Positions 99-51,782 of a stretch of 64,000 nucleotides of DNA are shown piece after piece. Within the stretch, counting starts at the first letter, position 1, and each line of letters starts with the position of its first letter. A model generated the notes under the pieces. It was not told where the DNA came from, made no database searches, and saw only the letters and a list, made by a program, of their open reading frames with translations. Both the position numbers and the translations under genes were made by a program. The DNA lies in NCBI RefSeq assembly GCF_988242995.1, contig NZ_OZ547043.1; one strand, written 5' to 3'.

Positions 99-1274
<1,176 letters not shown>

Positions 1275-1487: not shown

Positions 1488-1513
1488 TCAATTTTATTGT
1501 TGGTTAAATCAGA

Positions 1514-2920: not shown

Positions 2921-3100
2921 TACATACTCCTGTCAGGTGTGGTCACCGCGCGACGTATGCGCGGCTTGAATGTATAGCAAATGTTAACCTATGTCCGTTT
3001 GAAAAAAAACGAAAATCAATTTAACGAATGTCGGAAATAGGTAACCAGTTGCTGTTTCATAACATATGCTGCGCTCCGATAAATACTTATTCTCTGTTAT

Positions 3101-3967: not shown

Positions 3968-4111
3968 TGCTTACCTTCTCTATATAATCTTCAAATATTA
4001 TCGCATTAACTTTTAAGTAAATTTTAAAAATGCAGTGCAATAAACATTCAGTTTAAATAAGCTTGACATTAGAAATATCTCCAGCTTATTTACTTGTATT
4101 AAATGTCACAT

Positions 4112-5699: not shown

Positions 5700-6669
5700 T
5701 TCTTTCCCTTTTTGAATAACCCTCTATATAATACATAGCCAAGACTAACTTGTAAAATATTGCTCTGATTTTAAATTTATTCCTATTGTCTAACTTATTA
5801 AGAACAACCCTTACAAATTTATTAAGTTTAATACTATTAGCGCAAGACAAAGCTACTCTAAGCACAGTTGACTTCATACTACCTTTCCGCTCAGCCTGGG
5901 GAAATAGCAATTTATCTACAATTTCAGGATGTTTCTTAACCAAAAGCGGTACTGAGTACCTTGCATAAGGAATCATTCTTTCACATGCCCTATCGAGGGT
6001 AGGGGTGTCGTTATCGTAGAGTAAAGCATCGCTACAAAAGAAAAACGGAACAGAGCTTAAACGAAGCCGCGCCCCAAATTCTTCATCCTCACAACCATAA
6101 TGCCGGAATGATTCATCGAACCCTTTCTGTGCTTCAAACTCGGATTTGCTAATCAGGAAAGCATCGCTTGCAAAGTAGCGATACTCAATTTTAACAGTTC
6201 CTTTATATCTATTCCCCAAATATCGGGAGTCAAAGTAGTGTAGGTAATTGCTGTCGCGGGTTAAATCTTGCCGACATCTGACATTAGCCCTTGCTACAAA
6301 AGGCTTCTCGCAGGACAAAATCATTGAATGCAGGCTATCAAGACAACCTTGCTGGAGCAAATTGTCTATGTCGACAAAAAATAACCATTCATTGCTTGCT
6401 GATTTCGCAGCTCTATTTCGAGAAAAGGCGCGACCTTCATTTATTTCATTACGTAAGAACACTAACCGCCATTCGCGCTCATTAAATTTTTCAGAAAAGG
6501 CAATAGTTGTGTCTTCCAAATTCACCTCAGAACCGTCATCGATGATGATAAGTTCAATATTCTTTAGTATATTCTTTTGTCCATGAGTATTAGCGAGCAG
6601 AGCTGAGATGAAAGTTTCTACTTTTGATGAGCTACCGAGAACAGGGCTAATAATGCTAATCATTTGCAC
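5692..6669 (-). CDS. Family 2 glycosyltransferase
   Basis: 325 aa; N-terminal ISIISPVLGSS...ELIIIDDGS matches the GT-A nucleotide-sugar binding and DxD region. Confidence 0.75.
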   Translation of the reverse strand: MQMISIISPVLGSSSKVETFISALLANTHGQKNILKNIELIIIDDGSEVNLEDTTIAFSEKFNEREWRLVFLRNEINEGRAFSRNRAAKSASNEWLFFVDIDNLLQQGCLDSLHSMILSCEKPFVARANVRCRQDLTRDSNYLHYFDSRYLGNRYKGTVKIEYRYFASDAFLISKSEFEAQKGFDESFRHYGCEDEEFGARLRLSSVPFFFCSDALLYDNDTPTLDRACERMIPYARYSVPLLVKKHPEIVDKLLFPQAERKGSMKSTVLRVALSCANSIKLNKFVRVVLNKLDNRNKFKIRAIFYKLVLAMYYIEGYSKRERNG

Positions 6670-7918
6670 GTTCCATTAAATATTTTTTAGTTACAGTTAA
6701 ATACCAATAGATTGAAACTAATATTGAAAAGAAAAGAGAAATATATAATGCAATAAAGATGCTTGGTATCGGCGCAGTAATAGCAGAGACTTTCAATGCG
6801 CTATAGATGCTCAGACATAATAAAAATACAAGACACCATTTAATGGTGTAATAGTAGTAACTCTTTGATGCAAGGTTAGCTGCGTTGATCAAATTATCGA
6901 CAGCAAAAAATGGCAACAAAAAGACCAGAATATTATAATAATTTGCCGATGTGACATAGTCATGGCCGAAAACAAATGTAAAGATATATGGTGTAAATGG
7001 CTTTAACGAAAATGAGAATAACGAAAAAGCAGTAAACATTATTATGGATAAGACAATAAGATTTCTGTTGAAAATTTTCCACTTCTTGTTTTTGTATAAA
7101 AGGATGGGGGCCAAAACCTGTATCAATATTAAGGTTACTGAAGCTGTATTCTCATTAATCTGTGATGCAGCACTATATATACCATAATCAACTGGTGAAA
7201 TGTTACCTTTCAGTAAGAATCTGTCAATTTTCATAAATAATGCATAGGCTACAACCCCTCCCCAGATGAAAAAACTGCGTTTTAACAGGAAGCCTATATC
7301 ATTTAGTCTAACAAGACTTATTCTGGGGAACTTACAAATTGAACAACAGTACATGACTATCGCAACAAAAATGCCCTCCAGTACCCATGGCAATGCAAGG
7401 AACTTGATATCGAAATTTATCACTATAAATAAGTAATATAGTGTTAGTATCCTGATAATGCAGCCAAAGATCTGGATGATACCTGAGAGGTATAATTTCC
7501 CTTCAGATTGCCATTTTGCAAAGCCTACCATCAATGGCTCTCGTGCCAAGAGAGTAACGGACGAAAATAGCAAGTAATACCTTACAATCTCACTTTCAGC
7601 TGTAATTGCGAGGATTACACTGACAGTAGCGACTAATGATGATACAGATAATCTTGCAAAAAAAATTGTATTACAATAAATCAATTTCTTGCGTAATGAA
7701 TAGCGCGATAACTGAGGGACAACTGATTCTGACCCGCACATCCAAGTTAGTGACATTAAAATATTTGAAAAAGTAAATGCATATTGCCAAATGCCAAACT
7801 GCTCAATTGGAAGCGCTTTTGAGATAAGATGGTTAGCATAAATAGCACTAATAATCTGTACAAATCGCTCAAACAACAGGACAAGCAATCCCGCAATAAT
7901 TGATTTATTCACGAACAC
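6656..7918 (-). CDS. wzx: O-antigen flippase
   Basis: 420-aa polytopic membrane protein (about 12 hydrophobic segments) of the polysaccharide-transporter type, located in the O-antigen cluster. Confidence 0.7.
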   Translation of the reverse strand: MFVNKSIIAGLLVLLFERFVQIISAIYANHLISKALPIEQFGIWQYAFTFSNILMSLTWMCGSESVVPQLSRYSLRKKLIYCNTIFFARLSVSSLVATVSVILAITAESEIVRYYLLFSSVTLLAREPLMVGFAKWQSEGKLYLSGIIQIFGCIIRILTLYYLFIVINFDIKFLALPWVLEGIFVAIVMYCCSICKFPRISLVRLNDIGFLLKRSFFIWGGVVAYALFMKIDRFLLKGNISPVDYGIYSAASQINENTASVTLILIQVLAPILLYKNKKWKIFNRNLIVLSIIMFTAFSLFSFSLKPFTPYIFTFVFGHDYVTSANYYNILVFLLPFFAVDNLINAANLASKSYYYYTIKWCLVFLLCLSIYSALKVSAITAPIPSIFIALYISLFFSILVSIYWYLTVTKKYLMERAND

Positions 7919-8903
7919 CTTCCGGTGAGATTATTTTTTTCACCCATTGCTGTAAAGAATATTGTTCTCTATTTTTGTAATTAACATTCGGTGCGTTAAT
8001 AAAATTCTCAGGTACTATGACCTGATGTCTTTTTACTACGCAGATCATATTAGGGTCATAAAAATCGTACTTTTTTATGTCTTCATTCGTGGTAATAATT
8101 TTTTTATTTAACCCGATGCATTCTATTGTTCGCATTGTCAGACCGCGCTGCCTTGGATGATGAATATCGATGATAATTTCAGAGCACTTCATCATTTCAA
8201 CAACTTCAGATTGTGATAATGGTTCAAATTCTACGTCTGTATTTATTTTTTTTCCGCTTAATAAATTCTTCAGTTTAAAAATAATTTCATTCTGAAAATA
8301 AAAGAATGTATAAGCATTAATGTCTTTAATATTTCTTACTTCAGCAGTAATGCAATTGACCAAATCAACGCGATCTGAATGAGCTGTACCGATAAAACAA
8401 AGATCGTATTTTAGCGAATGCTCATGCTTATTGTCAAAACGCGGCGAATAAAACAGCGGAAGAAATGTTACTCCCCATTTTTCAGCATCATCACGTTCAA
8501 AGGTGAAAACCGAATCAAACTGATTTATTATTCTTTTAACTTTGGGTTTGTTATTGACCGAATCCCACAAATACATAATGAATTTACAGTGTTCATTTTT
8601 TACTTTAACGGTTTTTTTTATGGCCTGTAAAATTTCATGATCAATTGCTTCAGGATTTAAAATAAATACATTATCGATTTTTTTGTTGACAATTTGCCGT
8701 AGTAATTTTTTATAATAACTTGAGTTATACTTTTTAATCAAAATACTACAACCTAACCTTAGCAATGATTTATAAATAGCATTATTGCTCGGCCGCTCAT
8801 CCCAATAGATAACGTCATTAGTTAATTCTAATTCTTTGACTATTTCTTTTTCATAATTAAAAAACTTGGGAGAAATAAACAATACTGTATTTTTGTACCC
8901 CAT
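7905..8903 (-). CDS. Hypothetical protein, candidate glycosyltransferase of unrecognised family
   Basis: 332-aa soluble ORF, AT-rich, overlaps wzx start by 14 nt (operonic). No motif I can assign; context suggests the second sugar transferase of the O-unit. Confidence 0.45.
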   Translation of the reverse strand: MGYKNTVLFISPKFFNYEKEIVKELELTNDVIYWDERPSNNAIYKSLLRLGCSILIKKYNSSYYKKLLRQIVNKKIDNVFILNPEAIDHEILQAIKKTVKVKNEHCKFIMYLWDSVNNKPKVKRIINQFDSVFTFERDDAEKWGVTFLPLFYSPRFDNKHEHSLKYDLCFIGTAHSDRVDLVNCITAEVRNIKDINAYTFFYFQNEIIFKLKNLLSGKKINTDVEFEPLSQSEVVEMMKCSEIIIDIHHPRQRGLTMRTIECIGLNKKIITTNEDIKKYDFYDPNMICVVKRHQVIVPENFINAPNVNYKNREQYSLQQWVKKIISPEGVRE

Positions 8904-8904
8904 T

Positions 8905-9720
8905 TTATCTTCCCTGAGATTTTTTGAATTCTTTTATCATATCCACTAAATCATTCAATACATTTTTATAATGATGTGGGACTATTGAGTTAGTTTTTTG
9001 CATCGTGATAACAGGAAATGTTTCGCATGTATCATTCTTGTGCCACTGTATATTACAACCTGTTTCAGATATTAAAATGTCAGCGATGGATTTTGCTGAA
9101 ACATTATATCCAGATGCAATGTTATAAATATCTCCGGGTGAAGTTATAGATTCTGCTAGCTTATACATGACGGCAACCACATCATCTACCGATACATAAT
9201 CCTTCTCGTAGTCAGAGCTAACATACATATCGACATGATTGTTATTGATTGCATTTTTTATTATTTGCGGAAGGAATAACGGGCTATTTAGTGCGAGTCC
9301 ATAAACATTTGATGGTCGGACGACCACAACGTTCTTTTTACTTCTTAGACATAACTCTTCAGCAACCAATTTTGTCAAATTGAAAAGCTTGCGACCATCA
9401 TTGTGACAAATTTTTAGATCTGAATTTTCTGCAGAATCTCTGGAGTTCAAATATACACGAGTGGAAGAAATGTAGACTAATTTCTGGAAATTAGCTTGTG
9501 TAAGTATTACTTTTAGCTTATTGACATTTGCATCCACAACATTATAGGCATCACTTTTGCAATCGCCATAGCCTGCGCAATAAAAGACGGTACCAAGGTC
9601 AATTTCTTTGTTATAAAGATAGTCTCTGTCAGGGCAGAAACATTCTTTATTCATTGATTCTAAAAATGTTACCATATGTGAACCAATGAAACCTGAACTA
9701 CCAACGACTGTATACTTCAT
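8905..9720 (-). CDS. NAD(P)-dependent sugar epimerase/reductase (SDR family), candidate dTDP-4-keto-6-deoxyhexose 4-reductase
   Basis: 271 aa; N-terminal Rossmann motif VVGSSGFIGSHMV; lies between the rmlC-like gene and the orphan ORF; does not resemble canonical RmlD. Confidence 0.55.
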   Translation of the reverse strand: MKYTVVGSSGFIGSHMVTFLESMNKECFCPDRDYLYNKEIDLGTVFYCAGYGDCKSDAYNVVDANVNKLKVILTQANFQKLVYISSTRVYLNSRDSAENSDLKICHNDGRKLFNLTKLVAEELCLRSKKNVVVVRPSNVYGLALNSPLFLPQIIKNAINNNHVDMYVSSDYEKDYVSVDDVVAVMYKLAESITSPGDIYNIASGYNVSAKSIADILISETGCNIQWHKNDTCETFPVITMQKTNSIVPHHYKNVLNDLVDMIKEFKKSQGR

Positions 9721-9782
9721 AATACTATAGCCTTTTGCTCTATGTATTAATAATGACAGGAAGCTAATTTAAACTGTTATGC

Positions 9783-10325
9783 TTATAAGCTAGCTTCTTT
9801 AAATTCTGAAAAACTAATTAACGCGTTGTCTTTAGATGACATAATTGGCATGTCTATCGGCCATTGTATATTCAGTTCTTTGTCATTCCAGATTATCCCC
9901 CCTTCATCGGTAGGATCATAGAAGTCTGTGCATTTGTAATGGAAATCCGCATACTCACTTAATACACAAAAACCATGTGCAAATCCAGGTGGGATATAGA
10001 TTTGATTATTTTTATCCCCAGAAAGTATAACACCTACATGCTTTCCAAAAGACGAAGATCCAGGTCTTAAATCAACAGCCACATCAAAAACTTCTCCACT
10101 GATGACACTTACTAATTTACCTTGAGGATTATTTTTTTGAAAATGTAAACCTCGAAGCACATTTCTTGCTGAGCGTGATCGATTATCTTGTACAAATGCC
10201 TCAGTTATTCCTATGTCGTGATATTTCTTCTGATGCCATGCTTCCAAAAAGAAACCACGAGAGTCACCAAAGACTTTTGGCTCAATGATTACACAACCAG
10301 CAAGTGGAGTCTCAATTACCTTCAT
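9783..10325 (-). CDS. rmlC: dTDP-4-dehydrorhamnose 3,5-epimerase family protein
   Basis: 180 aa; cupin-fold RmlC motifs EPKVFGDSRGFF, NVLRGLHFQ, GFAHGF. Confidence 0.8.
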   Translation of the reverse strand: MKVIETPLAGCVIIEPKVFGDSRGFFLEAWHQKKYHDIGITEAFVQDNRSRSARNVLRGLHFQKNNPQGKLVSVISGEVFDVAVDLRPGSSSFGKHVGVILSGDKNNQIYIPPGFAHGFCVLSEYADFHYKCTDFYDPTDEGGIIWNDKELNIQWPIDMPIMSSKDNALISFSEFKEASL

Positions 10326-10396
10326 AATTATAAACCTTGTATTATATTTTTTAAATTTGCTAATTTTTGATACAATTTAGCTACCTTTATCAGTTA

Positions 10397-11479
10397 CTAA
10401 CGCATCTTGTAGTTCTGCTCAATCCAGGTTTGGTACGCCCCACTTTTGATATTTTCAACCCATGAGGTGTTTGCCAGATACCATTCAACCGTTTTGCGAA
10501 TCCCACTTTCGAACGTCTCTTGCGGTTTCCAACCGAGCTCACGGCTGATTTTATCCGCATCGATCGCGTATCGACGGTCATGGCCTGGACGATCGGCAAC
10601 ATAGGTGATTTGTTCACGGTATGACACTGCTTTAGGTACGATCTCATCCAGCAGGTCGCAGATGGTATGTACAACATCGAGATTTTTCTTCTCGTTATGG
10701 CCACCGATGTTGTAGGTCTCACCAGGGATTCCTTTCGTCACCACGGTATATAACGCACGGGCATGGTCTTCAACATAGAGCCAGTCGCGAATCTGATCGC
10801 CTTTACCATAAATGGGTAACGATTTCCCTTCGAGAGCATTGAGAATAACCAAGGGAATCAACTTTTCAGGGAAATGGTATGGGCCATAGTTATTCGAACA
10901 GTTGGTCACCATTGTTGGAAGACCGTATGTACGCAGCCAGGCACGAACGAGATGGTCGCTGGAGGCTTTTGAAGCCGAATAAGGACTACTCGGCGCATAG
11001 GCGGTTTGTTCCGTGAAGAGAGGAAGAATACTCCCCTGCGCAACCTCATCCGGATGCGGTAAATCCCCATAAACTTCATCAGTAGAGATGTGATGGAAGC
11101 GGAATGTCGCCTTTCGCGCACTATCCAGTGAGGACCAGTATTGACGGGCTGTTTCTAAAAGAACATAAGTACCCACAATATTCGTTTCAATAAATGCAGC
11201 AGGGCCTGTAATTGAACGGTCAACATGGCTTTCAGCAGCCAGGTGCATCACTGCATCCGGCTGATGCTGAGAAAAAATTCGCGCCATTGCAGCAGCATCG
11301 CAAATATCCGCATGTTCAAAAACATAGCGTTCAGAATCAGAAACATCAGCAAGTGATTCCAGGTTTCCGGCGTACGTTAATTTATCGACATTAACAACAC
11401 TATCCTGCGTATTATTTATAATGTGACGAACTACAGCAGAACCAATAAATCCTGCGCCACCAGTAACAAGTATCTTCAC
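10397..11479 (-). CDS. rmlB: dTDP-glucose 4,6-dehydratase
   Basis: 360 aa; [43 protein letters not shown] matches RmlB/RfbB almost residue-for-residue. Confidence 0.92.
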
Positions 11480-11553
11480 TTATTTATTCCATATAACTTC
11501 AGAGCATGCTGTGAAATAAGCGGCTCTTAGGTTGATTAATAGAGGTGTTAATG

Positions 11554-11592
11554 CACGCTACCGCCCCTGGCTTTACAGCTACCAGAGCACTA
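11554..11592 (-). promoter_or_regulatory. JUMPstart element with ops site (RfaH-dependent antitermination) upstream of the O-antigen operon
   Basis: Minus-strand reading is cagtgctctggtagctgtaaagccaggggcGGCGGTAGCGTG; the ops core GGCGGTAGCGTG is the reverse complement of 11554-11565. Confidence 0.8.
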
Positions 11593-11850
11593 CATGCATG
11601 TCTACGATGTGACGAGCGTTACCCACTCGCGCTAAACCCGAAAAATTCAAACGCTAATTGTCTTACCAATCCGCTCTGGAAACAAGGAAAATCCTGGAAA
11701 ACTTTGACTAAAATCCTATTGCTAACTCGTTGTTATTCTGATTGTTTATATAAAACAACGGCAGGAATATTCGCAACAAATTACTTTCGCCACGAATCTT
11801 CACTGTCGTTATAATTTTCTTATCAACCGTTACATCCGGTCAGATTTTCA

Positions 11851-12744
11851 TTATTCGCTTAACAGCTTCTCAATCCCTTTACGGAACTTCGCCCCTTCTT
11901 TGAGGTTGCGTAGTCCATACTTCACAAATGCCTGCATATAACCCATTTTTTTACCGCAGTCGTAACTGTCCCCAGTCATCAGCATGGCATCAACGGACTG
12001 TTTTTTCGCCAGCTCGGCAATAGCATCAGTCAGCTGAATACGTCCCCATGCACCAGGCTGAGTACGTTCCAGTTCCGGCCAAATATCGGCAGAAAGCACA
12101 TAGCGACCAACGGCCATGATGTCTGAGTCCAGCGTCTGCGGCTGATCCGGTTTTTCGATAAATTCGACGATGCGGCTGACTTTACCTTCACGATCCAGTG
12201 GTTCTTTGGTCTGAATGACGGAGTATTCAGAGAGGTCACCCGGCATACGTTTTGCCAGCACCTGGCTGCGGCCCGTTTCATTGAAGCGCGCAATCATGGC
12301 AGCAAGGTTGTAGCGCAGCGGGTCGGCACTGGCGTCGTCGATCACAACGTCCGGCAATACCACAACAAATGGGTTGTCACCAATGGCGGGTCGTGCACAC
12401 AAAATGGAGTGGCCTAAACCTAAAGGTTCGCCCTGACGCACGTTCATAATGGTCACGCCCGGCGGACAGATGGACTGTACTTCCGCCAGCAGCTGACGCT
12501 TCACGCGCAGTTCAAGGAGAGATTCTAATTCATAAGAGGTGTCGAAGTGGTTTTCGACCGCGTTTTTGGACGCGTGAGTTACCAGGAGGATTTCTTTGAT
12601 CCCTGCAGCCACAATCTCGTCAACAATGTACTGAATCATTGGCTTGTCGACGATCGGTAGCATCTCTTTGGGAATCGCCTTAGTAGCAGGCAACATATGC
12701 ATCCCTAGACCCGCTACAGGAATAACTGCTTTTAAATTCGTCAT
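11851..12744 (-). CDS. galF: UTP-glucose-1-phosphate uridylyltransferase-like regulatory subunit
   Basis: ORF track gives 11851-12756; conserved GalF N-terminus [44 protein letters not shown] starts at the internal Met (12744). Confidence 0.9.
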
Positions 12745-12918
12745 TATTTCATCCACCTGTAAAATGGTTGCTGAATTATAGCTTGTTCGATTTTTTTCGC
12801 CAGCATCAATTACCCTGAATTGATTACTGAATTACTTGTGATGTTACGCCGCTTCGTTGTGGATTGCAGTAGCATTGTTCCTAAGTATGGCTCCATTTTT
12901 CCAGGAATGGTCGCAAAT

Positions 12919-16882: not shown

Positions 16883-17069
16883 GCCTGATGCGACGCTGAC
16901 GCGTCTTATCAGGCCTACAAGACCCGAGCACAGAACCGTAGGCCGGATAAGGCGTTCACGCCGCATCCGGCATTCAGTGCCTGATGCGACGCTGACGCGT
17001 CTTATCAGGCCTACAGGTCCCGAGCACAGAACCGTAGGATGGATAAGGCGTTTTACGCCGCATCCGGCA
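16883..17069. repeat. BIME: four alternating REP palindromes
   Basis: gcctgatgcgacgctgacgcgtcttatcaggcctaca occurs twice, alternating with inverted gtaggccggataaggcgttcacgccgcatccggca-type copies, between wcaK and wzxC. Confidence 0.85.
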
Positions 17070-21477: not shown

Positions 21478-21567
21478 ATCGTTACCCTTTTTCAGGCAAT
21501 AGTTGGTCCTGACCGAAGCGGCCAATTTTATTTTTGTCGTTATTTACACCGCGGTTTCGCATTCATT

Positions 21568-36093: not shown

Positions 36094-36132
36094 CACGCTA
36101 CCGCCCCTGGCTTTTTAGCTACCAATACACTG
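36094..36132 (-). promoter_or_regulatory. JUMPstart element with ops site in the colanic acid operon leader
   Basis: Minus-strand reading is cagtgtattggtagctaaaaagccaggggcGGCGGTAGCGTG; near-identical to the O-antigen JUMPstart at 11554-11592. Confidence 0.8.
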
Positions 36133-38156: not shown

Positions 38157-38162
38157 TGGCAT

Positions 38163-38205
38163 GTAGGCCTGATAAGACGCGTAAAGCGTCGCATCAGGCC
38201 TACAG
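38163..38205. repeat. REP palindrome
   Basis: tgtaggcctgataagacgcgtaaagcgtcgcatcaggcctaca, a perfect inverted repeat between the convergent yegH and asmA. Confidence 0.85.
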
Positions 38206-38223
38206 GACAGGTCACCTGGTAAC

Positions 38224-40771: not shown

Positions 40772-41413
40772 TTATTCAAAGAACTGACTTATTTTCGCTT
40801 TCAATATATCGATGGCGATGCGGTTTTTCCCGCCGCGCGGCACGATAATGTCCGCATATTGTTTAGAAGGCTCAATGAATTGCAGGAACATCGGGCGCAC
40901 GGTTTTTTGATATTGCGCCATCACTGAATCCATTGAACGCCCACGCTCGTTAACGTCACGCTTGATGCGGCGCATCAGGCAGATATCCAGCGGGGTATCA
41001 ACGAAAATGGAGAAGTTAAGTTCGTCACGCAAACGCGCATCTGTCAGCAACAAAATGCCTTCGAGAATGATGACCTTCTTCGGCTCAACCGTCACCGTTT
41101 CTTTCATTCGCGTATGTTCAACATAGCTGTAAACCGGCAGGTCAATTGCCGAGCCGCGTTTCAACGCTTGTAAATGCTCAAGCAACAGGCTGTGATCCAT
41201 CGCGCTGGGATGGTCGTAGTTGGTCTTAACGCGTTCTTCCATCGACAGATGGCTTTGATCTTTGTAATAGCAGTCTTCGGGAATTACGCCGATGTGTTCA
41301 TCACCGACTTGCTCACGTAATTCACGATAAAGGGTACTGGCAATAAGACTCTTGCCGGAAGCCGATGCGCCAGCGATACCGATAATGACGCACTGATGAG
41401 ACTGATCAGTCAT
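40772..41413 (-). CDS. udk: Uridine/cytidine kinase
   Basis: Conserved start [26 protein letters not shown] (Walker A) at the internal Met (ORF track extends to 41476), giving 213 aa. Confidence 0.95.
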
Positions 41414-41730
41414 ATATTTAGCGACCTGATTAACCTGGATGTTAGGAAGGGGGCGACGAAGCGCCAAACGCGGCAATTATAGGGATTTCATCCGCCTGAT
41501 ACCAGTCGAATAGCGTTGCCGCGCGCTCAGAGTTAATTGTTGACGAAGAATTCCCGGTGGCAAATTACGTTGATCAGTTTTATACAAGGTAAAAATTGTT
41601 ATACGCAGTTGCGCAAATTATCCGCCTTTACGTCACTTTATGAGCAATTCGCATATAAAATGTAAAACTTTTGTACTAGCATAAACACAGAAACGAATAC
41701 TGGCGACCTGGTCTTGCGGATAAAGCGGTA

Positions 41731-44700
41731 ATGAGCAAACAATCACAGCATGTATTAATTGCCCTGCCCCACCCGCTGCTTCACCTGGTCAGTTTAGGTT
41801 TAGTCTCGTTTATCTTTACCCTTTTCTCGCTTGAGCTTTCGCAGTTTGGCACCCAACTCGCCCCACTGTGGTTCCCGACGTCCATCATGATGGTGGCGTT
41901 TTATCGCCATGCCGGGCGCATGTGGCCGGGGATTGCGCTGAGCTGCTCGCTGGGAAATATCGCCGCATCCATCCTGCTTTTTTCCACCAGCTCGCTGAAC
42001 ATGACCTGGACGACCATCAATATTGTTGAAGCCGTGGTCGGGGCAGTGCTACTACGTAAATTGCTGCCGTGGTATAACCCATTGCAAAATCTGGCTGACT
42101 GGCTGCGTCTGGCACTCGGCAGCGCCATTGTTCCACCTCTGTTGGGGGGTGTTCTGGTTATCCTGCTGACGCCCGGAGACGATCCTCTCAGGGCATTTTT
42201 GATATGGGTACTGTCAGAATCCATCGGCGCACTGGCACTGGTGCCGCTGGGATTGTTATTTAAACCACACTATCTGCTGCGCCATCGCAACCCACGGTTG
42301 CTTTTTGAGTCGCTGCTCACGTTAGCCATCACACTGACGTTAAGCTGGCTTTCGATGCTGTATCTGCCGTGGCCTTTTACTTTCATTATTGTGCTGTTGA
42401 TGTGGAGCGCCGTGCGCCTGCCACGAATGGAAGCCTTTTTGATCTTCCTTACCACGGTGATGATGGTGTCACTGATGATGGCCGCTGATCCCTCCCTGCT
42501 TGCTACGCCGCGTACATACCTGATGAGCCATATGCCGTGGCTACCGTTTTTGCTGATCCTGCTGCCCGCCAACATCATGACCATGGTGATGTATGCCTTT
42601 CGTGCGGAACGCAAACACATTTCCGAAAGCGAAACCCGTTTTCGTAATGCCATGGAATATTCCGCCATCGGCATGGCATTAGTGGGCACCGAGGGACAAT
42701 GGCTGCAATCCAACAAAGCGCTCTGCCAGTTTCTCGGTTACAGTCAGGAAGAACTGCGCGGACTCACCTTTCAGCAACTGACCTGGCCGGAGGATCTCAA
42801 TAAAGATCTGCAACAGGTTGAAAAGCTGATCAGCGGTGAAATAAACACCTATTCAATGGAAAAACGCTACTACAACCGCAATGGCGATGTTGTCTGGGCG
42901 TTGCTTGCCGTCTCACTGGTGCGCCACACGGATGGCACGCCGCTCTATTTTATCGCTCAGATTGAAGACATTAACGAGCTAAAACGCACCGAACAGGTGA
43001 ACCAGCAACTGATGGAGCGCATCACGCTGGCTAACGAAGCGGGCGGGATTGGCATCTGGGAGTGGGAGCTAAAGCCGAATATTTTTAGCTGGGATAAGCG
43101 GATGTTCGAGCTGTATGAAATTCCTCCGCATATCAAACCGAACTGGCAGGTGTGGTACGAGTGCGTGCTGCCGGAAGATCGCCAGCATGCCGAAAAAGTG
43201 ATTCGTGATTCGTTGCAATCACGCTCGCCCTTTAAGCTGGAATTTCGCATTGCCGTGAAAGATGGCATCCGCCATATCCGCGCCCTCGCCAACCGGGTAC
43301 TGAATAAAGAAGGCGAAGTCGAACGTCTGCTCGGCATTAATATGGATATGACCGAGGTTAAACAGCTTAACGAGGCATTGTTTCAGGAAAAAGAGCGCCT
43401 GCACATTACGCTGGATTCCATCGGCGAAGCCGTGGTTTGTATTGATATGGCAATGAAAATTACCTTTATGAATCCGGTGGCGGAGAAGATGAGCGGCTGG
43501 ACGCAGGAAGAAGCGTTAGGTGTTCCACTCCTGACGGTGTTGCATATTACTTTTGGCGACAACGGACCATTAATGGAGAACATTTACAGTGCCGACACCT
43601 CACGTTCCGCGATTGAACAAGATGTGGTGTTGCACTGCCGAAGCGGCGGCAGCTACGACGTGCATTACAGTATTACGCCGTTAAGTACTCTGGACGGCAG
43701 CAATATTGGTTCGGTTCTGGTGATTCAGGACGTCACCGAATCGCGCAAAATGCTGCGCCAGCTGAGCTACAGCGCCTCCCATGATGCACTGACGCATCTC
43801 GCCAATCGCGCCAGTTTTGAGAAGCAACTGCGTATCCTGCTGCAAACGGTAAATAGTACGCACCAGCGACATGCCCTGGTGTTTATCGATCTTGATCGCT
43901 TTAAAGCGGTGAATGACAGCGCCGGGCACGCCGCTGGCGACGCTTTACTGCGCGAACTGGCGTCATTGATGCTGAGTATGCTGCGCTCCAGCGACGTGCT
44001 GGCGCGACTCGGTGGCGATGAATTTGGTCTGCTGCTGCCAGATTGTAATGTCGAAAGTGCGCGTTTTATCGCTACACGCATTATCAGCGCCGTGAATGAC
44101 TATCACTTTATCTGGGAAGGACGTGTACATCGGGTAGGTGCCAGTGCCGGGATTACCTTGATTGATGACAACAATCATCAGGCGGCTGAAGTGATGTCGC
44201 AGGCTGATATCGCCTGTTATGCCTCCAAAAATGGTGGCCGGGGCCGGGTGACGATTTACGAACCGCAGCAAGCTGCCGCACATAGCGAACGGGCGGCGAT
44301 GTCGCTTGATGAACAGTGGCGGATGATTAAAGAGAATCAGTTGATGATGATCGCCCACGGTGTCGCTTCGCCGCGGATCCCGCAAGCGCGTAATTTGTGG
44401 CTGATTTCACTTAAGCTCTGGAGTTGCGAAGGCGAGATTATTGATGAACAAACATTTCGTCGTAGCTTCAGCGATCCGGCACTTAGCCATGCTCTTGACC
44501 GACGGGTATTCCACGATTTTTTCCAGCAGGCCGCCAAAGCGGTTGCCAGTAAAGGTATAAGCATCGCCCTCCCGCTTTCCGTTGCCGGTTTGAGTAGCGC
44601 CACGCTGGTGAATGAACTAATTGAGCAGCTGGAAAATAGCCCTCTACCACCACGGTTATTACATCTGATTATTCCGGCAGACGCGATTTTAGATCACGCA

Positions 44701-45048
44701 GAAAGCGTGCAAAAACTGCGGCTGGCGGGATGTCGGATCGTATTCAGTCAGGTGGGCCGCGATCTGCAAATCTTCAACTCGCTGAAAGCGAATATGGCAG
44801 ATTACCTGCTACTTGATGGTGAGTTATGCGCCAACGTGCAGGGAAATTTGATGGATGAGATGCTGATTACGATCATTCAGGGGCACGCTCAGCGGCTCGG
44901 GATGAAGACCATCGCCGGGCCAGTAGTTTTACCCCTGGTGATGGATACGCTTTCTGGCATCGGCGTCGATCTGATTTATGGCGATGTGATTGCCGATGCC
45001 CAACCGCTGGATTTGCTGGTGAATAGCAGTTATTTCGCGATTAACTGA
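41731..45048 (+). CDS. dgcE: Diguanylate cyclase DgcE: membrane sensor with PAS domains, GGDEF and a degenerate EAL domain
   Basis: 1105 aa; hydrophobic N-terminal domain, an intact GGDEF motif (ARLGGDEFGLLLPD), and no recognisable EAL motif in the C-terminal domain. Confidence 0.9.
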   Translation: MSKQSQHVLIALPHPLLHLVSLGLVSFIFTLFSLELSQFGTQLAPLWFPTSIMMVAFYRHAGRMWPGIALSCSLGNIAASILLFSTSSLNMTWTTINIVEAVVGAVLLRKLLPWYNPLQNLADWLRLALGSAIVPPLLGGVLVILLTPGDDPLRAFLIWVLSESIGALALVPLGLLFKPHYLLRHRNPRLLFESLLTLAITLTLSWLSMLYLPWPFTFIIVLLMWSAVRLPRMEAFLIFLTTVMMVSLMMAADPSLLATPRTYLMSHMPWLPFLLILLPANIMTMVMYAFRAERKHISESETRFRNAMEYSAIGMALVGTEGQWLQSNKALCQFLGYSQEELRGLTFQQLTWPEDLNKDLQQVEKLISGEINTYSMEKRYYNRNGDVVWALLAVSLVRHTDGTPLYFIAQIEDINELKRTEQVNQQLMERITLANEAGGIGIWEWELKPNIFSWDKRMFELYEIPPHIKPNWQVWYECVLPEDRQHAEKVIRDSLQSRSPFKLEFRIAVKDGIRHIRALANRVLNKEGEVERLLGINMDMTEVKQLNEALFQEKERLHITLDSIGEAVVCIDMAMKITFMNPVAEKMSGWTQEEALGVPLLTVLHITFGDNGPLMENIYSADTSRSAIEQDVVLHCRSGGSYDVHYSITPLSTLDGSNIGSVLVIQDVTESRKMLRQLSYSASHDALTHLANRASFEKQLRILLQTVNSTHQRHALVFIDLDRFKAVNDSAGHAAGDALLRELASLMLSMLRSSDVLARLGGDEFGLLLPDCNVESARFIATRIISAVNDYHFIWEGRVHRVGASAGITLIDDNNHQAAEVMSQADIACYASKNGGRGRVTIYEPQQAAAHSERAAMSLDEQWRMIKENQLMMIAHGVASPRIPQARNLWLISLKLWSCEGEIIDEQTFRRSFSDPALSHALDRRVFHDFFQQAAKAVASKGISIALPLSVAGLSSATLVNELIEQLENSPLPPRLLHLIIPADAILDHAESVQKLRLAGCRIVFSQVGRDLQIFNSLKANMADYLLLDGELCANVQGNLMDEMLITIIQGHAQRLGMKTIAGPVVLPLVMDTLSGIGVDLIYGDVIADAQPLDLLVNSSYFAIN

Positions 45049-45064
45049 GGCGTGCTTCCCCATC

Positions 45065-45090
45065 GCCTGATGCGGCGTATCAGGCCTACA
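45065..45090. repeat. REP palindrome
   Basis: gcctgatgcggcgtatcaggcctaca between dgcE and the alkA stop. Confidence 0.6.
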
Positions 45091-45943
45091 ATTCGTCCGT
45101 TCCGTCTGGTTGCCAGCCTTCCGTATACCAGATATGCAACAGCGCATAAGAACGCCAGGGCTTCCAGCGTTCGGCATAACGGCGGATTTGTGCCGGTGTC
45201 ATTCCCGGAAATCGCTGTTTAATCAGATAATCATCCGGCAGGAAAACATCTTTCGCCTGCCAGCCACGTAAGGCGAAATAATTCGCCGTCCAGCGCCCGA
45301 TACCCGGAAAAGTTTGCAGCGTTTTCATCGCTTGCTCTACGTCGCCCGGAATTGTCATTGGTAAGGTGCCCTCCAGCGCCGCATTTGCCAGATTAATCAG
45401 CGCCTCTGCCCGTTTCAACGGCATACCTAACGCTTTTAATGCCTGCGGGTCGGCTGCAGCCAGCCGCTGAGGCGTGGGGAAGCAGACATAATCCGGAAAA
45501 TCATCCAGCCGTTCGCCATAAAGCTGTGCCACTCTGGCGGTCAATTTTGCCGCCATCGCCACGCTCACCAGTTGGCCTAAAATCGCCCGCACGCCCTGCT
45601 CAAAAGCATCAACACTGCCGGGTAAACGCAATCCGGGCCGCGCCGCGCCTAACTTGCCCAACGCACCGTTAACAATCTGCGGGTTACATTGCAGATCAAA
45701 CAGGCGGCTCATTTTCGCCAGACACTCTGCGGCAACAGGTTCTAAACCTGCACTTAAATTTATGTGCAGAGTATGGCGGGCTATATCCGGAATAGCAGTC
45801 ACCACGCCGCGATATTCGCCCACCGCCAGACTACGGGCATAATAATCGTCAGCGACCGTTTCCACACCGTTCACCGCACGGGCGGCGAGAAATCCCAACA
45901 TCCACGACCAGTCATACGGCGGCTGCCAGTTCAGGGTATACAT
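45086..45943 (-). CDS. alkA: 3-methyladenine DNA glycosylase II
   Basis: 285 aa; MYTLNWQPPYDWSWMLGFLAARAV start. Confidence 0.9.
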   Translation of the reverse strand: MYTLNWQPPYDWSWMLGFLAARAVNGVETVADDYYARSLAVGEYRGVVTAIPDIARHTLHINLSAGLEPVAAECLAKMSRLFDLQCNPQIVNGALGKLGAARPGLRLPGSVDAFEQGVRAILGQLVSVAMAAKLTARVAQLYGERLDDFPDYVCFPTPQRLAAADPQALKALGMPLKRAEALINLANAALEGTLPMTIPGDVEQAMKTLQTFPGIGRWTANYFALRGWQAKDVFLPDDYLIKQRFPGMTPAQIRRYAERWKPWRSYALLHIWYTEGWQPDGTDEL

Positions 45944-47441: not shown

Positions 47442-49391
47442 TCAGCAACGGCTTAAATCAGCCTGCGCCTGAGCCAGTTTTTCTGCCGCCTGACGTAACG
47501 GTTCCATCAACGGCATGGTCCGTGCTGGAGCATGAAGGCGGAATCGCTGCAACTCTGTCGCACCGACAGTCAACGCCGATTCCAGCCGATGTCGTTTGGC
47601 GGCCATTTTTGCCATTACCGCTTGTCTGTCTGCAGGCGTTACCGCTTCGTTCGGCCTGAAAACAAAACGGCGTTCGCAACTCGCTTTCCAGTCGATAACC
47701 GCCTGGGTCAGATGATCACCAAAACCTTTCACTTGCTTAACGCTCCGTCGGGTAACGTCTGCCGCCGTTTCAATACCAAAGGACCGTAACGCAGCTTTAC
47801 GCGCAGGGCCAACGCCGGGAATAGAGGCAACATCAATAAAAAATCCCTCCAGAAACTTCTGCTTCTGCCGTTCCCTTGCGGTGTCCTGAAGTGCTGCCAG
47901 AGCGCGTTTCTCTTCTTCCGGTAACCCGAGCATTTCGTCCTTCATTTTTTCGAGCATCGTCCGTTTGGCGATAAAACCTTCCAGCCCGCCCAACCGTTGG
48001 ATCTGGCTGACTAAATGGTCATAGTCCATTTTCGCGCGATTAAACGCCTCACGGCGTTGCTGGATTTCTGCTTTGTACGCTTTGCTTGTCAGGCTGCCAA
48101 TAATCCAGATAGCCGCCAGCACAGGAACCAAAATAATATAACGCGGTTCTGCCTGAAGGCCGCAAAGCAACAGCGATAACGCTGACAGTGCGATCTCAAT
48201 CAGAATGATGTATTCGCGCCGTAACAGGCCTAAAGGAAGCGGCCTGCCAGTCAGTTGGAAATGATCGGGTAATGGCAGTTGCAATGCTGGCGGTGCTACT
48301 GACGCCATCACCATCGCCCAGACTTTCGCCAGCACAAAATCACCGCTGGTGGTAATGACCTCTTCGCCGAGATCAATAAAATAGATAACGCCTTGATTAT
48401 CCAGCGCACACCACGGGCAGTCAGTCAAATGACCGGGGTAAACATGCATTGCCGAAACGGTACATTTCTTTAACTGTTGGCGTAGTAAATCAAGTGCCGC
48501 AACCCACGCTTTTGCCGTCGGACGCCCGGTTGCCACGCCACTTTCCGTGAATGCCTGCTGAAACATGGTTTCAACATCGCCCGGTAACATCGACAGCGGA
48601 ATAGATCGTGGCGGCGGTTTTAAACCACGTCGCTGATTATCTGACGCGTAGGCATAACGGAAATGGGCAATATCCGTCTCCAGTGCATTACCCGCATCAG
48701 AGACAAGCGGTACACCGGAATAAGGATGCCGCCCACCAAACAAGACGTGAAAAATCAGCAACGCAAGGCCAAAATTATCGTGATTCGCGGTGCGTTCAAA
48801 GCCGACAAATGATGGCAAGGTTTGCAGCTCTGGCGGCGTAAAATGCGACACGCCGACTTCGCATAAATGCAGCGTGCCATTGGCGTTAATCTGAAAGGAG
48901 TCGCTATCAATCAACACCACTTTGCTGTCGCGACCTACCATAAAACTGTTCTGGTTTACGTCACCCACGACGTGCCCGTGCTCGTGAACCGTAGCAAAAG
49001 ATGAAGCAATATTGCGCGCAACATAGAGTAGAAAATCCCACGCACAATGAGGGTAACGTTGACGACGATGTGCCGGGCTATAGATCATATGAATCGGTTC
49101 TTTACCAGAAACTTTTGGCATCATAAAACCGATAACTTTTCCGCCTCGTCCACCGTGAAGCGTTGCCTGCGGCCAGGCGACATAATTCAACAATTGCGCG
49201 TCAGCTGTCGCAGCCATAAAGGCAAGTTTGTCCTGTTTTAAGGCGGGTGGCGGCGTGTGATAAATCTTGGCGACGCTATCGACAAACTCATTGATATCAT
49301 AAACCGCGCCTTCACCGCCTTTGCCCAGTTCACGGCCTGGCGTAACGCACTCACCAGTAGCAGTATATAAAGTGGGTTTCATGGTAACCAC
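47442..49391 (-). CDS. yegI: Eukaryotic-like Ser/Thr protein kinase with C-terminal membrane and coiled-coil regions
   Basis: 649 aa (or 646 from the Met at 49382); kinase-like N-terminal half (GKGGEGAVY glycine loop, HGHVVGDVNQNSF catalytic region), central hydrophobic segments; start overlaps the yegK stop. Confidence 0.85.
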   Translation of the reverse strand: MVTMKPTLYTATGECVTPGRELGKGGEGAVYDINEFVDSVAKIYHTPPPALKQDKLAFMAATADAQLLNYVAWPQATLHGGRGGKVIGFMMPKVSGKEPIHMIYSPAHRRQRYPHCAWDFLLYVARNIASSFATVHEHGHVVGDVNQNSFMVGRDSKVVLIDSDSFQINANGTLHLCEVGVSHFTPPELQTLPSFVGFERTANHDNFGLALLIFHVLFGGRHPYSGVPLVSDAGNALETDIAHFRYAYASDNQRRGLKPPPRSIPLSMLPGDVETMFQQAFTESGVATGRPTAKAWVAALDLLRQQLKKCTVSAMHVYPGHLTDCPWCALDNQGVIYFIDLGEEVITTSGDFVLAKVWAMVMASVAPPALQLPLPDHFQLTGRPLPLGLLRREYIILIEIALSALSLLLCGLQAEPRYIILVPVLAAIWIIGSLTSKAYKAEIQQRREAFNRAKMDYDHLVSQIQRLGGLEGFIAKRTMLEKMKDEMLGLPEEEKRALAALQDTARERQKQKFLEGFFIDVASIPGVGPARKAALRSFGIETAADVTRRSVKQVKGFGDHLTQAVIDWKASCERRFVFRPNEAVTPADRQAVMAKMAAKRHRLESALTVGATELQRFRLHAPARTMPLMEPLRQAAEKLAQAQADLSRC

Positions 49392-50140
49392 AGCGCCAGT
49401 GCCAACGTTTTATCATCATCCGTACGCTCGTTTACCGCCGGGCTGGACAAAAACTGCTTTAACAATTCAGGTAATAAATCGAGTTGTTCCTGCGTTGCTG
49501 ACGCCAGTCCATTGAAAAACGGGGTAAAGAAAGGTACATGAGGAGAATTATCCAGCATATTTAACGCCAGTCGCTGGATACCATCCGTAAATGCTGCAAC
49601 TTTGTGCGCACGCCCAGTGCTGGTGAAAGTTTCCAGTCTGGAAACGGCATCTTCGTCGGTAATGAAGTGCGTCATATTGGCATATTCACCCACCATCGGC
49701 GTGAGAGGCAATTGCAGACCGTGACCCAAATCTACCACCATGCCGCCATCGCCAATCTGCATAATCAAGGTGCCGTCAGGCGATGAAATCAGTCCCAGAA
49801 ATGTACAGGCAAAATCGCGAACCGCTAATTCTTTGGCTTCCGCCTCGGCAAAAAGTCGTTGACGAATGGTCAGCACAATATCCGTGGCGAGGACATCATT
49901 AAGCCCCAATTCCCCGCCCTGCACTTTTTGCGACATATAAGCCATCGCTTCATTGACGGCGAGCATCGCGCCTTCGCCACCCTGCGAGACACTGCCTGCG
50001 CCATCAGCGACAAATACCGACAATAATGGCTGCTGGTCATTTAACCAGGCAACCTGCATCTGGCAGGCATCCTGGCAAGGCAAGTCCGCGCTGATGTGCG
50101 ACGTTCCAACGGTTGATGCATAGACCAGACGCCAGCTCAC
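49379..50140 (-). CDS. pphC: PP2C-family Ser/Thr phosphatase
   Basis: 253 aa; [27 protein letters not shown] and [16 protein letters not shown] match the PP2C fold; also known as yegK. Confidence 0.85.
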
Positions 50141-50796: not shown

Positions 50797-50977
50797 AAGA
50801 AATCCTTTCTTAGAGAATTATCGAGGTCCGGTATCATACCGATTGCAATAATGAAATAAGAGCAAACGAAGAAACTTTCAGAATTAGGCCCGGCGGCGCA
50901 GAAAATTTTGCTATTCGCCTCGCAAGAACGGAGAGCCGTCGATTGACACTAAGGGCGGAGTGACATAATTTCAGGAG

Positions 50978-51125
50978 TGAGGGTTAGGGAGAGGTTTCCC
51001 CCTCCCCCTGGTGTTCTTAGTAAGCCTGGAAGCTAATCACTAAGAGTATCACCAGTATGATGACGTGCTTCATCATAACCCTTTCCTTATTAAAAGCCCT
51101 CTTCTCCGGGAGAGGGTTTCCCGTT
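50978..51125 (+). ncRNA. sibA: Sib antitoxin sRNA, unit 1 (SibA-like)
   Basis: Sigma70-like promoter TTGACA (50943-50948), 17-nt spacer, TAATTT (50966-50971); terminator stem ccctct (51097-51102) / agaggg (51111-51116) followed by TTTCCCGTTT; fully antisense to ibsA. Ends are approximate. Confidence 0.6.
51017..51076 (-). CDS. ibsA: Type I toxin Ibs, 19-aa hydrophobic peptide
   Basis: Minus-strand ORF atgatgaagcacgtcatcatactggtgatactcttagtgattagcttccaggcttactaa = MMKHVIILVILLVISFQAY; SD-like aaggaaaggg upstream; not in the ORF track (below 60 aa). Confidence 0.75.
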   Translation of the reverse strand: MMKHVIILVILLVISFQAY

Positions 51126-51312
51126 TCAGCGTCCCGCTGAAATCGTCGGCTTACCTCCTTTCGCCCTGAATGCAGTCTATCGCTAACGCGTGAACAAAAT
51201 AGTTTCCTCTGTGATTATTGCGTAACGACTCGCAAAGAATATTTGCTGGCAGGATCGCAGACTGCAAAGCCTGCGGATTGACAATCTTATCGTGAAGGCA
51301 TAATTTCAGGAG

Positions 51313-51454
51313 TGAGGGTAGAGCGGGGTTTCCCCCGCCCTGGTAGTCTTAGTAAGCGGGGAAGCTTATGACTAAGAGCACCACGATGATGAGTAGCTTC
51401 ATCATGACCCTTTCCTTATTTAAGGCCCCTTCCTCGGGAGGGGCTTTCCCGTTT
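51313..51454 (+). ncRNA. sibB: Sib antitoxin sRNA, unit 2 (SibB-like)
   Basis: TTGACA (51278-51283), 17-nt spacer, TAATTT (51301-51306); terminator stem gcccct (51425-51430) / aggggc (51439-51444) plus T-tract; antisense to ibsB. Ends are approximate. Confidence 0.6.
51349..51405 (-). CDS. ibsB: Type I toxin Ibs, 18-aa hydrophobic peptide
   Basis: Minus-strand ORF atgatgaagctactcatcatcgtggtgctcttagtcataagcttccccgcttactaa = MMKLLIIVVLLVISFPAY. Confidence 0.75.
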   Translation of the reverse strand: MMKLLIIVVLLVISFPAY

Positions 51455-51640
51455 CAGCGTCCCGCTGAAATCGTCGACTTACCTCCTTTCGCCCTGTATG
51501 CAGTCTATCGCTGACTTGCGGATAAAATAGTTTCCAGTGTGATTATTGCGTAACGTCTCGCAAAGAATATTTGCTGGCAGGATCGCAGACTGCAAAGCCT
51601 GCAGATTGACAATCTTATCGTGAAGGCATACTTTCAGGAG

Positions 51641-51782
51641 TGAGGGTAGAGCGGGGTTTCCCCCGCCCTGGTAGTCTTAGTATGCTGGGTAGCTAATCAC
51701 TAAGAGCACCACGATGATGATCCACTTCATCATGACCCTTTCCTTATTTAAGGCCCCTTCCTCGGGAGGGGCTTTCCCGTTT
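51641..51782 (+). ncRNA. Sib-family antitoxin sRNA, unit 3
   Basis: TTGACA (51606-51611), 17-nt spacer, TACTTT (51629-51634); terminator stem gcccct (51753-51758) / aggggc (51767-51772) plus T-tract; antisense to the third ibs ORF. Ends are approximate. Confidence 0.55.
51677..51733 (-). CDS. Ibs-family type I toxin, divergent third copy (18 aa)
   Basis: Minus-strand ORF atgatgaagtggatcatcatcgtggtgctcttagtgattagctacccagcatactaa = MMKWIIIVVLLVISYPAY; same ATGATGAAG start and SD context as units 1 and 2. Confidence 0.65.
   Translation of the reverse strand: MMKWIIIVVLLVISYPAY

Follow-up and report, generated by a model that had tools for sequence, protein, structure and literature searches.

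We have found that the protein encoded by dgcE in this 64,000-nucleotide stretch of DNA (the window) is very probably an active diguanylate cyclase in which a catalytically dead EAL domain serves as a built-in negative regulatory module. A degenerate and inhibitory EAL domain is already known from published work on the DgcE protein of Escherichia coli K-12 (PMC6510439). The earlier note on the window, made from the sequence alone, had proposed a cyclase with a degenerate and probably regulatory EAL domain, and this proposal is supported by the retention of the fold, by purifying selection, and by the published K-12 genetics. The features of the gene are collected in Table 1.

Table 1. Features of dgcE and its product, in positions of the window
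Feature	Residues	Coordinates	Strand	Basis
dgcE (yegE) coding sequence, ATG start	1105 aa + stop	41731..45048	+	ORF; NCBIfam equivalog; annotation in matching E. coli genomes
MASE1 membrane domain	19-294	41785..42612	+	Pfam PF05231, E 1e-35, profile 2-298 of 299
Three PAS domains	about 299-672	42625..43746	+	NCBIfam TIGR00229 sensory_box, 3 stretches
GGDEF diguanylate cyclase domain	682-838	43774..44244	+	Pfam PF00990, E 1.1e-45, profile 1-160 of 161
RxxD inhibitory-site (I-site) motif RSSD	752-755	43984..43995	+	sequence reading
GGDEF active-site (A-site) motif	761-765	44011..44025	+	sequence reading
Degenerate EAL domain	about 859-1104	44305..45042	+	Pfam PF00563; AlphaFold2 model; Foldseek
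ISLKL in place of EALxR	I892 for metal-binding Glu, L896 for Arg	44404..44418	+	vs PdeL E141/R145, PdeH E48, PdeR E440/R444
Pro in place of metal-binding Asn	P948 (PdeL N200)	44572..44574	+	IGINVS aligned to IALPLS
IIPA in place of ExTE	I980/A983 (PdeL E232-L-T-E235)	44668..44679	+	alignment
SQVG in place of DDFG	(PdeL D262-D263-F-G)	44746..44757	+	alignment
Leu in place of catalytic Lys	L1027 (PdeL K283)	44809..44811	+	alignment
GPVV in place of EGVE	G1063, V1066 (PdeL E319-G-V-E322)	44917..44928	+	alignment
Tyr in place of conserved Gln	Y1083 (PdeL Q339)	44977..44979	+	alignment

The open reading frame is that of DgcE (YegE, b2067), a well-studied diguanylate cyclase that triggers biofilm formation in E. 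coli. The protein matches NCBIfam equivalog NF007298 (PRK09776) with a score of 2067.6 bits, relative to a cut-off of 1135, and residues 1-1105 align with profile positions 1-1111. This score and the dgcE annotation of the E. coli genomes that were matched confirm the gene name given previously, and the ATG-started frame has exactly the length, position, and strand that had been assigned to it. The gene order udk-dgcE-alkA is shared by 5417 of the 5426 complete genomes of E. coli. With positions 41400-45400 as the megablast query, at least 80% of the query was covered in 5399 genomes, this order lies under the match in the genomes listed, and the annotation tables agree with the placement of dgcE between udk and alkA. 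The K-12 protein (NP_416571.1) is also 1105 residues long with an equal domain order, and 1091 of the 1105 residues (98.7%) are identical. The 14 substitutions are conservative; nine are found in residues 851-1105 and none in a motif, and the GGDEF motif, RSSD, and all of the degenerate EAL positions are the same in both alleles. The neighbors are shared with K-12, with udk upstream and divergent and alkA downstream and convergent, whereas the dgcE-alkA spacer here is without the 62 bp REP-like sequence that is present in K-12. A scan of positions 41400-45200 for promoters and terminators gave matches that were no more frequent than in shuffled sequence.

The architecture of the DgcE group was found to be present, with MASE1, three PAS, GGDEF, and degenerate EAL domains that were all identified above the Pfam gathering scores or with TIGR00229. 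The domain search that the earlier note had suggested, for MASE1, PAS, GGDEF, and EAL, thus returned all four, and the hydrophobic N-terminal region described there was identified as the MASE1 domain. The PAS region was also matched by Pfam PAS, PAS_3, PAS_4, PAS_9, and PAS_8. An identical architecture has been given for the K-12 protein, in which MASE1 is the docking site for the GTPase RdcA (PMC6510439).

The GGDEF motif had been read as intact, and the sequence LGGDEFGLL is indeed present inside a full-length match to PF00990. R752-S-S-D755 precedes the GGDEF A-site by five residues, V-L-A-R-L, and is taken here to be the I-site on the basis of what is established for GGDEF domains. The allosteric RxxD I-site is an optional feature of active GGDEF cyclases. 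The match to RbdA/PA0861 (5xgb) scored 155 bits in its GGDEF domain, PleD, WspR, and DgcZ were matched as well, and the matches to solved active cyclases were strong. In K-12, mutation of GGDEF to GGAAF (D763A/E764A) phenocopies the deletion of dgcE (PMC6510439), and a dgcE knockout is described in the K-12 literature as lowering cellular c-di-GMP. With its motifs intact here, and with K-12 publications as the source for the activity, the GGDEF domain of DgcE is predicted to make c-di-GMP.

The C-terminal domain had been described as a region in which no EAL signature could be found. This description is correct, with ISL at the position of the motif, and PF00563 still recognizes an EAL domain (residues 898-1088, E 4e-20, 72.6 bits relative to a cut-off of 31.3). 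The match begins only at profile position 39, and we take the portion of the profile upstream of this position to be the one that carries the EAL motif. The catalytic positions were judged by a MAFFT alignment with the active E. coli K-12 phosphodiesterases PdeL, PdeH, and PdeR. I892-S893-L894 was found to align with EAL, EVL, and ELL of PdeR, PdeL, and PdeH, and S1006-Q1007-V-G-R-D with D262-D263-F-G-T-G of PdeL, the DDFG(T/A)GYSS loop-6 motif. The column of the EAL motif was read from an alignment of the domains only. When orthologue fragments with GGDEF tails were included, MAFFT wrongly set the tails against the N-terminal 40-50 residues of the three phosphodiesterases; the L-x-R-W register was the same in both alignments. 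The tripeptide EAL does occur at residues 548-550 and 594-596, both of which are in the PAS region and unrelated to the EAL domain, and these occurrences are ascribed to chance.

The comparison with active phosphodiesterases that the earlier note had recommended has now been made, and the canonical EAL catalytic motif set is absent: non-equivalent residues stand at all of the conserved catalytic, metal-binding, and substrate-binding positions of PdeL, PdeH, and PdeR. DgcE shares the fold (TM 0.75-0.82) and the Pfam EAL match with active EAL phosphodiesterases (PdeL/YahA, PdeH/YhjH, PdeR/YciR, TBD1265, RocR, and RbdA), and it has kept G1009 of DDFG, D1029 of KxD, and G1084 of QG. Unlike these enzymes, DgcE has ISL for EAL, and other residues stand in for the Arg, the Asn, both Glu residues of ExTE, the DD pair, the Lys, both Glu residues of EGVE, and the Gln. 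By definition, the protein is therefore not an active EAL enzyme. With none of the residues left that are needed to bind the substrate, the catalytic water, and the pair of metal ions, the degenerate EAL domain is predicted from its sequence to be incapable of c-di-GMP hydrolysis.

An AlphaFold2 model of the degenerate EAL domain was obtained from a shallow alignment of 14 sequences, with a pLDDT of 87.9 and a pTM of 0.86. The best 50 Foldseek matches to this model were all EAL domains, and the TM scores to the EAL structures of FimX, RbdA, TBD1265, LapD, and RocR were determined to be 0.75-0.82. The C-terminal domain is predicted on the basis of this model to keep the TIM-barrel-like fold of EAL domains.

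The same catalytic losses were found in orthologues, including Salmonella, that differ from DgcE in the degenerate EAL domain to the extent of being only 48-64% identical. In 11 DgcE-type sequences, the most distant at 48-50% identity, the core positions never hold a residue of the catalytic type. The position of the motif Glu is occupied by I, L, or V (as ISL, VSL, or LSL) and that of the Arg by L or F, loop 6 reads SQVG, SHVG, or THSG, and GP and Y are found at the positions of EG and Q, with G1063 and Y1083 invariant. The enterobacterial YegE orthologues (for example P0012 from S. enterica and P0037 from an asmA-dcd-udk-dgcE locus) share the synteny and the C-terminal sequence SYFAIN. Across the orthologues, 67 of the 255 residues of the degenerate EAL domain are invariant, and the blocks SPLPxRLLHL, IQGHAQRL, MDTLSGIG, and IYG and the C-terminal YFAI are conserved across genera. 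The homologues found with this domain were mostly gene fragments and so give no clean census of full-length orthologues. At a more distant syntenic locus (L008), dgcE is split by a frameshift into pieces of 764 and 363 residues, and dcd is split too, which probably reflects the quality of the assembly. The two pieces of dgcE were analyzed separately, and dS is saturated at such a distance.

For the degenerate EAL domain, dN/dS was determined to be 0.128 between E. coli sequences and 0.138 between E. coli and Salmonella; the comparison with Salmonella covered residues 751-1105, because both of its contigs end inside the gene. This domain is the fastest-evolving part of DgcE, with a dN/dS of 0.13 relative to 0.01-0.03 for the other domains (4-10 times), and it is therefore under weaker constraint. 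These ratios nevertheless point to purifying selection, which fits a retained non-catalytic role. Since the EAL fold is kept in the model and the domain is under purifying selection, a role that is regulatory rather than catalytic is reasonable.

It may be asked whether the domain is more than a steric brake and has acquired a new and specific binding function, with its target either a protein partner in the PdeR/DgcM hub or a small molecule that is not c-di-GMP. We regard this as possible but rather unlikely. The suggestion is made because the blocks that are restricted to the DgcE lineage (SPLPxRLLHL, NLMDEM...IQGHAQRL, MDTLSGIG...IYG, and YFAI) would mark a new function. At what was once the active site, G1063-P1064 and Y1083 are constant across genera and are not freely drifting.

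There are precedents for the reuse of a dead EAL domain. Degenerate, non-catalytic EAL domains function as receptors or regulators in CsrD, BluF, and RflP of E. coli, and in FimX and LapD, as in DgcE, a dead EAL fold is put to regulatory use. Both FimX and LapD carry the annotation of c-di-GMP binding proteins, have been crystallized with c-di-GMP bound, and are among the nearest solved structures to the DgcE domain. The latter could thus be a c-di-GMP receptor of the FimX/LapD type that senses the product for feedback on the cyclase. The best PDB matches do include c-di-GMP-binding FimX and LapD (E 1e-6 to 1e-5; Foldseek ranks 1, 3, 4, and 12), and a product sensor could explain the inhibition by the EAL domain in vivo. 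However, the Glu and Arg of EALxR contact the ligand in receptor-type EAL domains. Both residues are retained in FimX (E-V-L-L-R), whereas the aligned sequence in DgcE is I-S-L-K-L, and the DD, K, EGVE, and Q positions are gone as well. In addition, the intact RxxD I-site of the GGDEF domain would already provide a site for product inhibition. It is very unlikely that the domain is such a receptor. DgcE also differs from FimX and LapD in that its EAL domain works in cis, on the active GGDEF domain of its own protein, by counteracting oligomerization (PMC6510439).

The chance that the C-terminal domain is a functionless relic in the course of drifting is smaller still. The high rate of change relative to the other domains and the location of nine of the 14 K-12 differences within it could be taken in this way, but the dN/dS is still about 0.13, the full length is kept, and 67 invariant residues and new conserved blocks are found across genera at 48-64% identity. 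The predicted fold is compact and confident, and deletion of the EAL domain gives a strong phenotype in K-12 (PMC6510439). Least probable of all, to the point of being negligible, is a weak or conditional phosphodiesterase activity that would make DgcE bifunctional; the EAL fold is bona fide and RbdA, an active PAS-GGDEF-EAL phosphodiesterase, is the nearest in sequence among solved relatives, but in all of the orthologues examined other residues, for the most part hydrophobic or small, have taken the place of the metal ligands (E, N, E, D, and D), the Lys, the Glu residues of EGVE, and the Gln, and the in vivo phenotypes of dgcE in the K-12 literature are cyclase phenotypes.

The preferred reading is that of an active cyclase restrained by its own inactive EAL domain. 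Pfiffer et al. (2019) described the EAL domain of K-12 DgcE as degenerate and demonstrated by genetics that it inhibits DgcE and counteracts its oligomerization, and that deletion of this domain hyperactivates matrix production (PMC6510439). Steric interference through self-dimerization of the EAL domain is, in the authors' own words, a hypothesis (PMC6510439). In the mechanism proposed here, the GGDEF domain would synthesize c-di-GMP and the degenerate EAL domain would function as a negative regulatory module that carries out no hydrolysis and may act sterically. Activation would be independent of the EAL domain, with MASE1 binding RdcA, a dynamin-like GTPase in its nucleotide-free state, along with RdcB upon the drop in GTP in stationary phase. 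The c-di-GMP from DgcE would then operate the PdeR-DgcM-MlrA switch, by which csgD, curli, and pEtN-cellulose are turned on. Inhibition by the EAL domain, its influence on oligomers, and the input through RdcA/RdcB are drawn from publications on K-12 DgcE, from which the allele in the window differs at 14 of 1105 residues.

For annotation, DgcE should be counted as a cyclase, and not as a bifunctional enzyme or a phosphodiesterase, in the c-di-GMP network of this strain. Two points are added here to what has been published for K-12. Loss of the catalytic residues is already seen in orthologues at 48-64% identity, that of Salmonella among them, and the degenerate EAL domain has been kept since then under purifying selection, with conserved blocks of its own.

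The 1105-residue protein named DgcE in the earlier note was found to be encoded by an open reading frame with exactly the extent proposed there, and no rival long open reading frame was found on the opposite strand of this region. The protein matches NF007298 (PRK09776, "diguanylate cyclase"; NCBIfam equivalog) from end to end, and its score of 2067.6 bits exceeds the cut-off of 1135. Using nucleotides 41400-45400 as a megablast query, the region was detected in 5417 of 5426 complete E. coli genomes with a top identity of 99.2%, and the gene order annotated under the match is udk-dgcE-alkA. The annotation tables of the closest genome and of K-12 MG1655 share the neighborhood wza-yegH-asmA-dcd-udk, dgcE, alkA-yegD-yegI-pphC-yegL-ibs/sib-mdtABCD-baeSR. 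The protein differs from K-12 DgcE (b2067) at 14 of 1105 residues (98.7% identity), always conservatively, and nine of these substitutions fall within residues 851-1105. Because of the synteny, the genome matches, and the few differences from K-12, the window is a segment of the E. coli chromosome, and the gene is dgcE (yegE), encoding DgcE itself and not a variant.

Features of dgcE and of the surrounding window
Feature	Position	Strand	Remarks
dgcE	41731-45048	+	ATG start, 1105 codons
MASE1	aa 19-294		Pfam, E 1e-35
PAS, several models	aa about 303-672		Pfam
GGDEF	aa 682-838		Pfam, complete profile, E 1.1e-45
GGDEF motif	aa 761-765 (nt 44011-44025)
EAL	aa 898-1088		Pfam, E 4e-20, 72.6 bits (cut-off 31.3)
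ugd	99-1265	-
gnd	1514-2920	-
O-antigen-type cluster	3101-11479	-	nine ORFs
JUMPstart	11554-11592	-
galF	11851-12756	-
naRNA4	16941-17011	+	REP-derived nucleoid-associated RNA
algC RNA motif	21482-21531	-	upstream of cpsG
second JUMPstart	36094-36132	-	upstream of wza
yegH-asmA gap	38157-38223		67 bp; K-12, 272 bp
dgcE-alkA spacer	45049-45085		37 bp; K-12, 108 bp (11585-11692 of its dgcE-alkA locus, L002)
yegI, pphC	47442-50140		directly overlapping
SIB_RNA, three tandem copies	50943-51091, 51278-51420, 51606-51748	+	Rfam RF00113, 139-150 bits each

The window departs from K-12 at several neighboring sites. The dgcE-alkA spacer is without 11 + 51 bp present in K-12, a REP-like palindrome among them (GCCGGATAAGGCG...CATCCGGC), and consequently the alkA reading frame ends differently (285 versus 282 residues in K-12). 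The yegJ gene (DUF2314), located between yegI and pphC in K-12, is absent, as in the closest complete genome, NZ_CP098201.1. Between yegL and mdtA, the three copies of the Sib antitoxin/Ibs toxin (type I) compare with two in K-12 (sibA/ibsA and sibB/ibsB) and three ibs genes in the closest genome. The yegH-asmA gap is a variable insertion point, occupied in NZ_CP098201.1 by a RelE/ParE toxin and HTH antitoxin pair. The O-antigen-type cluster, within the stretch 99-12756, contains rmlB-, rmlC-, and rmlA-like genes, an epimerase, a GT2 glycosyltransferase, and a hexapeptide acetyltransferase; three further ORFs had no Pfam match and are probably wzx, wzy, or glycosyltransferase genes. The naRNA4, algC, and second JUMPstart elements of the colanic-acid region are at Rfam gathering level.

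Six kinds of Pfam domain were identified in DgcE, all above gathering scores, and the NCBIfam sensory_box model matches three distinct stretches. The hydrophobic N-terminal sensor region of the earlier note corresponds to MASE1, and its intact GGDEF motif lies within a complete domain. Five residues N-terminal of this motif is R752-S-S-D755, an RxxD at the canonical position of the allosteric I-site. The GGDEF domain aligns over its full length with that of RbdA/PA0861 (155 bits), and also with solved active cyclases, among them TpbB, WspR, PleD, DgcZ, and DosC. Changing D763/E764 of K-12 DgcE, numbered identically here, to alanine (GGAAF) gave the phenotype of a dgcE deletion (PMC6510439).

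Pfam's EAL profile is matched only from position 39 onward. Residues 851-1105 of the window and K-12 proteins were aligned with the EAL domains of the active K-12 MG1655 phosphodiesterases PdeL/YahA, PdeH/YhjH, and PdeR/YciR. The positions compared are those that structural studies of RocR, TBD1265, and YahA established for EAL enzymes, and Pfiffer et al. say the same, citing references 52 and 53 of their paper (PMC6510439). A canonical EAL motif set, which would have refuted the proposal of the earlier note, was not found in this alignment; only G1009, D1029, and G1084 survive among the conserved positions, and none is directly catalytic.

Residues at conserved EAL positions
Position	PdeL	PdeH	PdeR	DgcE	11 DgcE-type sequences
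EAL motif	EVL (E141)	ELL (E48)	EAL (E440)	I892-S-L	Glu: I, L, or V
Arg of EALxR	R145	V52	R444	L896
Metal-binding Asn	N200			P948	P, A, or L
ExTE	E232, E235	E133, E136	E530, E533	I980, A983
DDFG	D262-D263-F-G	D158-D159-F-G	D560-D561-F-G	S1006-Q1007-V-G	DD: S/T followed by Q/H
Catalytic Lys	K283	K179	K581	L1027	L, M, or I
EGVE	E319-G-V-E322	E215-G-V-E218	E617-G-V-E620	G1063-P-V-V1066	first Glu: G, invariant
Gln of QG	Q339	Q235	Q637	Y1083	Y, invariant

An AlphaFold2 model of residues 851-1105, built on a 14-sequence alignment, has alternating strands and helices (mean pLDDT 87.9, pTM 0.86). The top 50 Foldseek matches in the PDB are all EAL domains, either active (RbdA 5xge; TBD1265 3n3t, TM 0.82; MorA, MucR, and RocR, TM 0.81-0.82) or degenerate (FimX and LapD). 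A PDB sequence search agrees, with RbdA and FimX as best matches (E 5e-7 to 1e-5). On this model, the EAL fold is predicted to be kept.

Relatives of the domain were found at 48-80% identity, including that of Salmonella enterica (P0012) and a more distant orthologue (P0037) with a syntenic locus, asmA-dcd-udk-dgcE. The catalytic positions are non-catalytic in 11 of 11 DgcE-type sequences, and catalysis was lost before the orthologues examined (48-64% identical, Salmonella included) diverged. Across orthologues, 67 of 255 residues are invariant, and the blocks SPLPxRLLHL, IQGHAQRL, TLSGIGxDxIYG, and the YFAI C-terminus are lineage-specific and highly conserved. The Nei-Gojobori dN/dS values against K-12 were 0.033 (MASE1), 0.019 (PAS), 0.012 (GGDEF), and 0.128 (degenerate EAL); against Salmonella (partial gene), they were 0.098 (GGDEF) and 0.138 (degenerate EAL). 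From these ratios, the degenerate EAL domain is under looser constraint than the rest of DgcE, yet clearly under purifying selection; this pattern, like the anatomy of the protein, is observed directly.

The dS values against K-12 are uneven (MASE1, 0.045; PAS, 0.18; GGDEF, 0.21; degenerate EAL, 0.12), which suggests an intragenic recombination mosaic. All four amino acid differences from the closest genome lie within residues 850-992, a stretch with no synonymous changes. Truncated dgcE alleles exist in public data: of the database proteins P0001 and P0002, one (747 member sequences) is a C-terminal fragment of 296 residues with a Shigella sonnei annotation, and the other is a 427-residue chimera with an N-terminal DDE transposase fragment (PF13737) fused at residue 792 or thereabouts, a sign that an IS element has inserted into dgcE in some strains.

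A role as a c-di-GMP receptor of the FimX/LapD kind is unlikely, since the Glu and Arg of EALxR and other pocket residues are absent. Residual phosphodiesterase activity is very unlikely because all metal ligands and the catalytic Lys are lost. Three observations contradict the view that the domain is a functionless relic: its dN/dS of about 0.13, its conservation across genera, and the phenotype that its deletion has in K-12.

The best-supported explanation is the mechanism published for K-12 DgcE, which is transferred here from K-12 genetics on the 98.7% identity. DgcE would be an active cyclase heading the csgD/curli/pEtN-cellulose switch; the dynamin-like GTPase RdcA, in its nucleotide-free form, and RdcB would bind MASE1 and promote PAS3/GGDEF dimerization; and the degenerate EAL domain would inhibit DgcE. 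K-12 dgcE without the EAL domain resembles a matrix-overproducing pdeR mutant, and the authors of that study hypothesized that the domain dimerizes and sterically interferes (PMC6510439). DgcE also takes part, along with PdeR and DgcM, in a hub of physical interactions (PMC5635695). The proposal of a cyclase with a degenerate, probably regulatory EAL domain fits the intact GGDEF, the lost catalytic positions, the kept fold, the purifying selection, and the K-12 genetics (PMC6510439). The finding of degeneracy is correct and already known, from the 2019 PLoS Genetics abstract (PMC6510439) and reviews. The lineage-specific blocks and the invariant G1063-P1064 and Y1083 may mark a new binding function beyond a steric brake.
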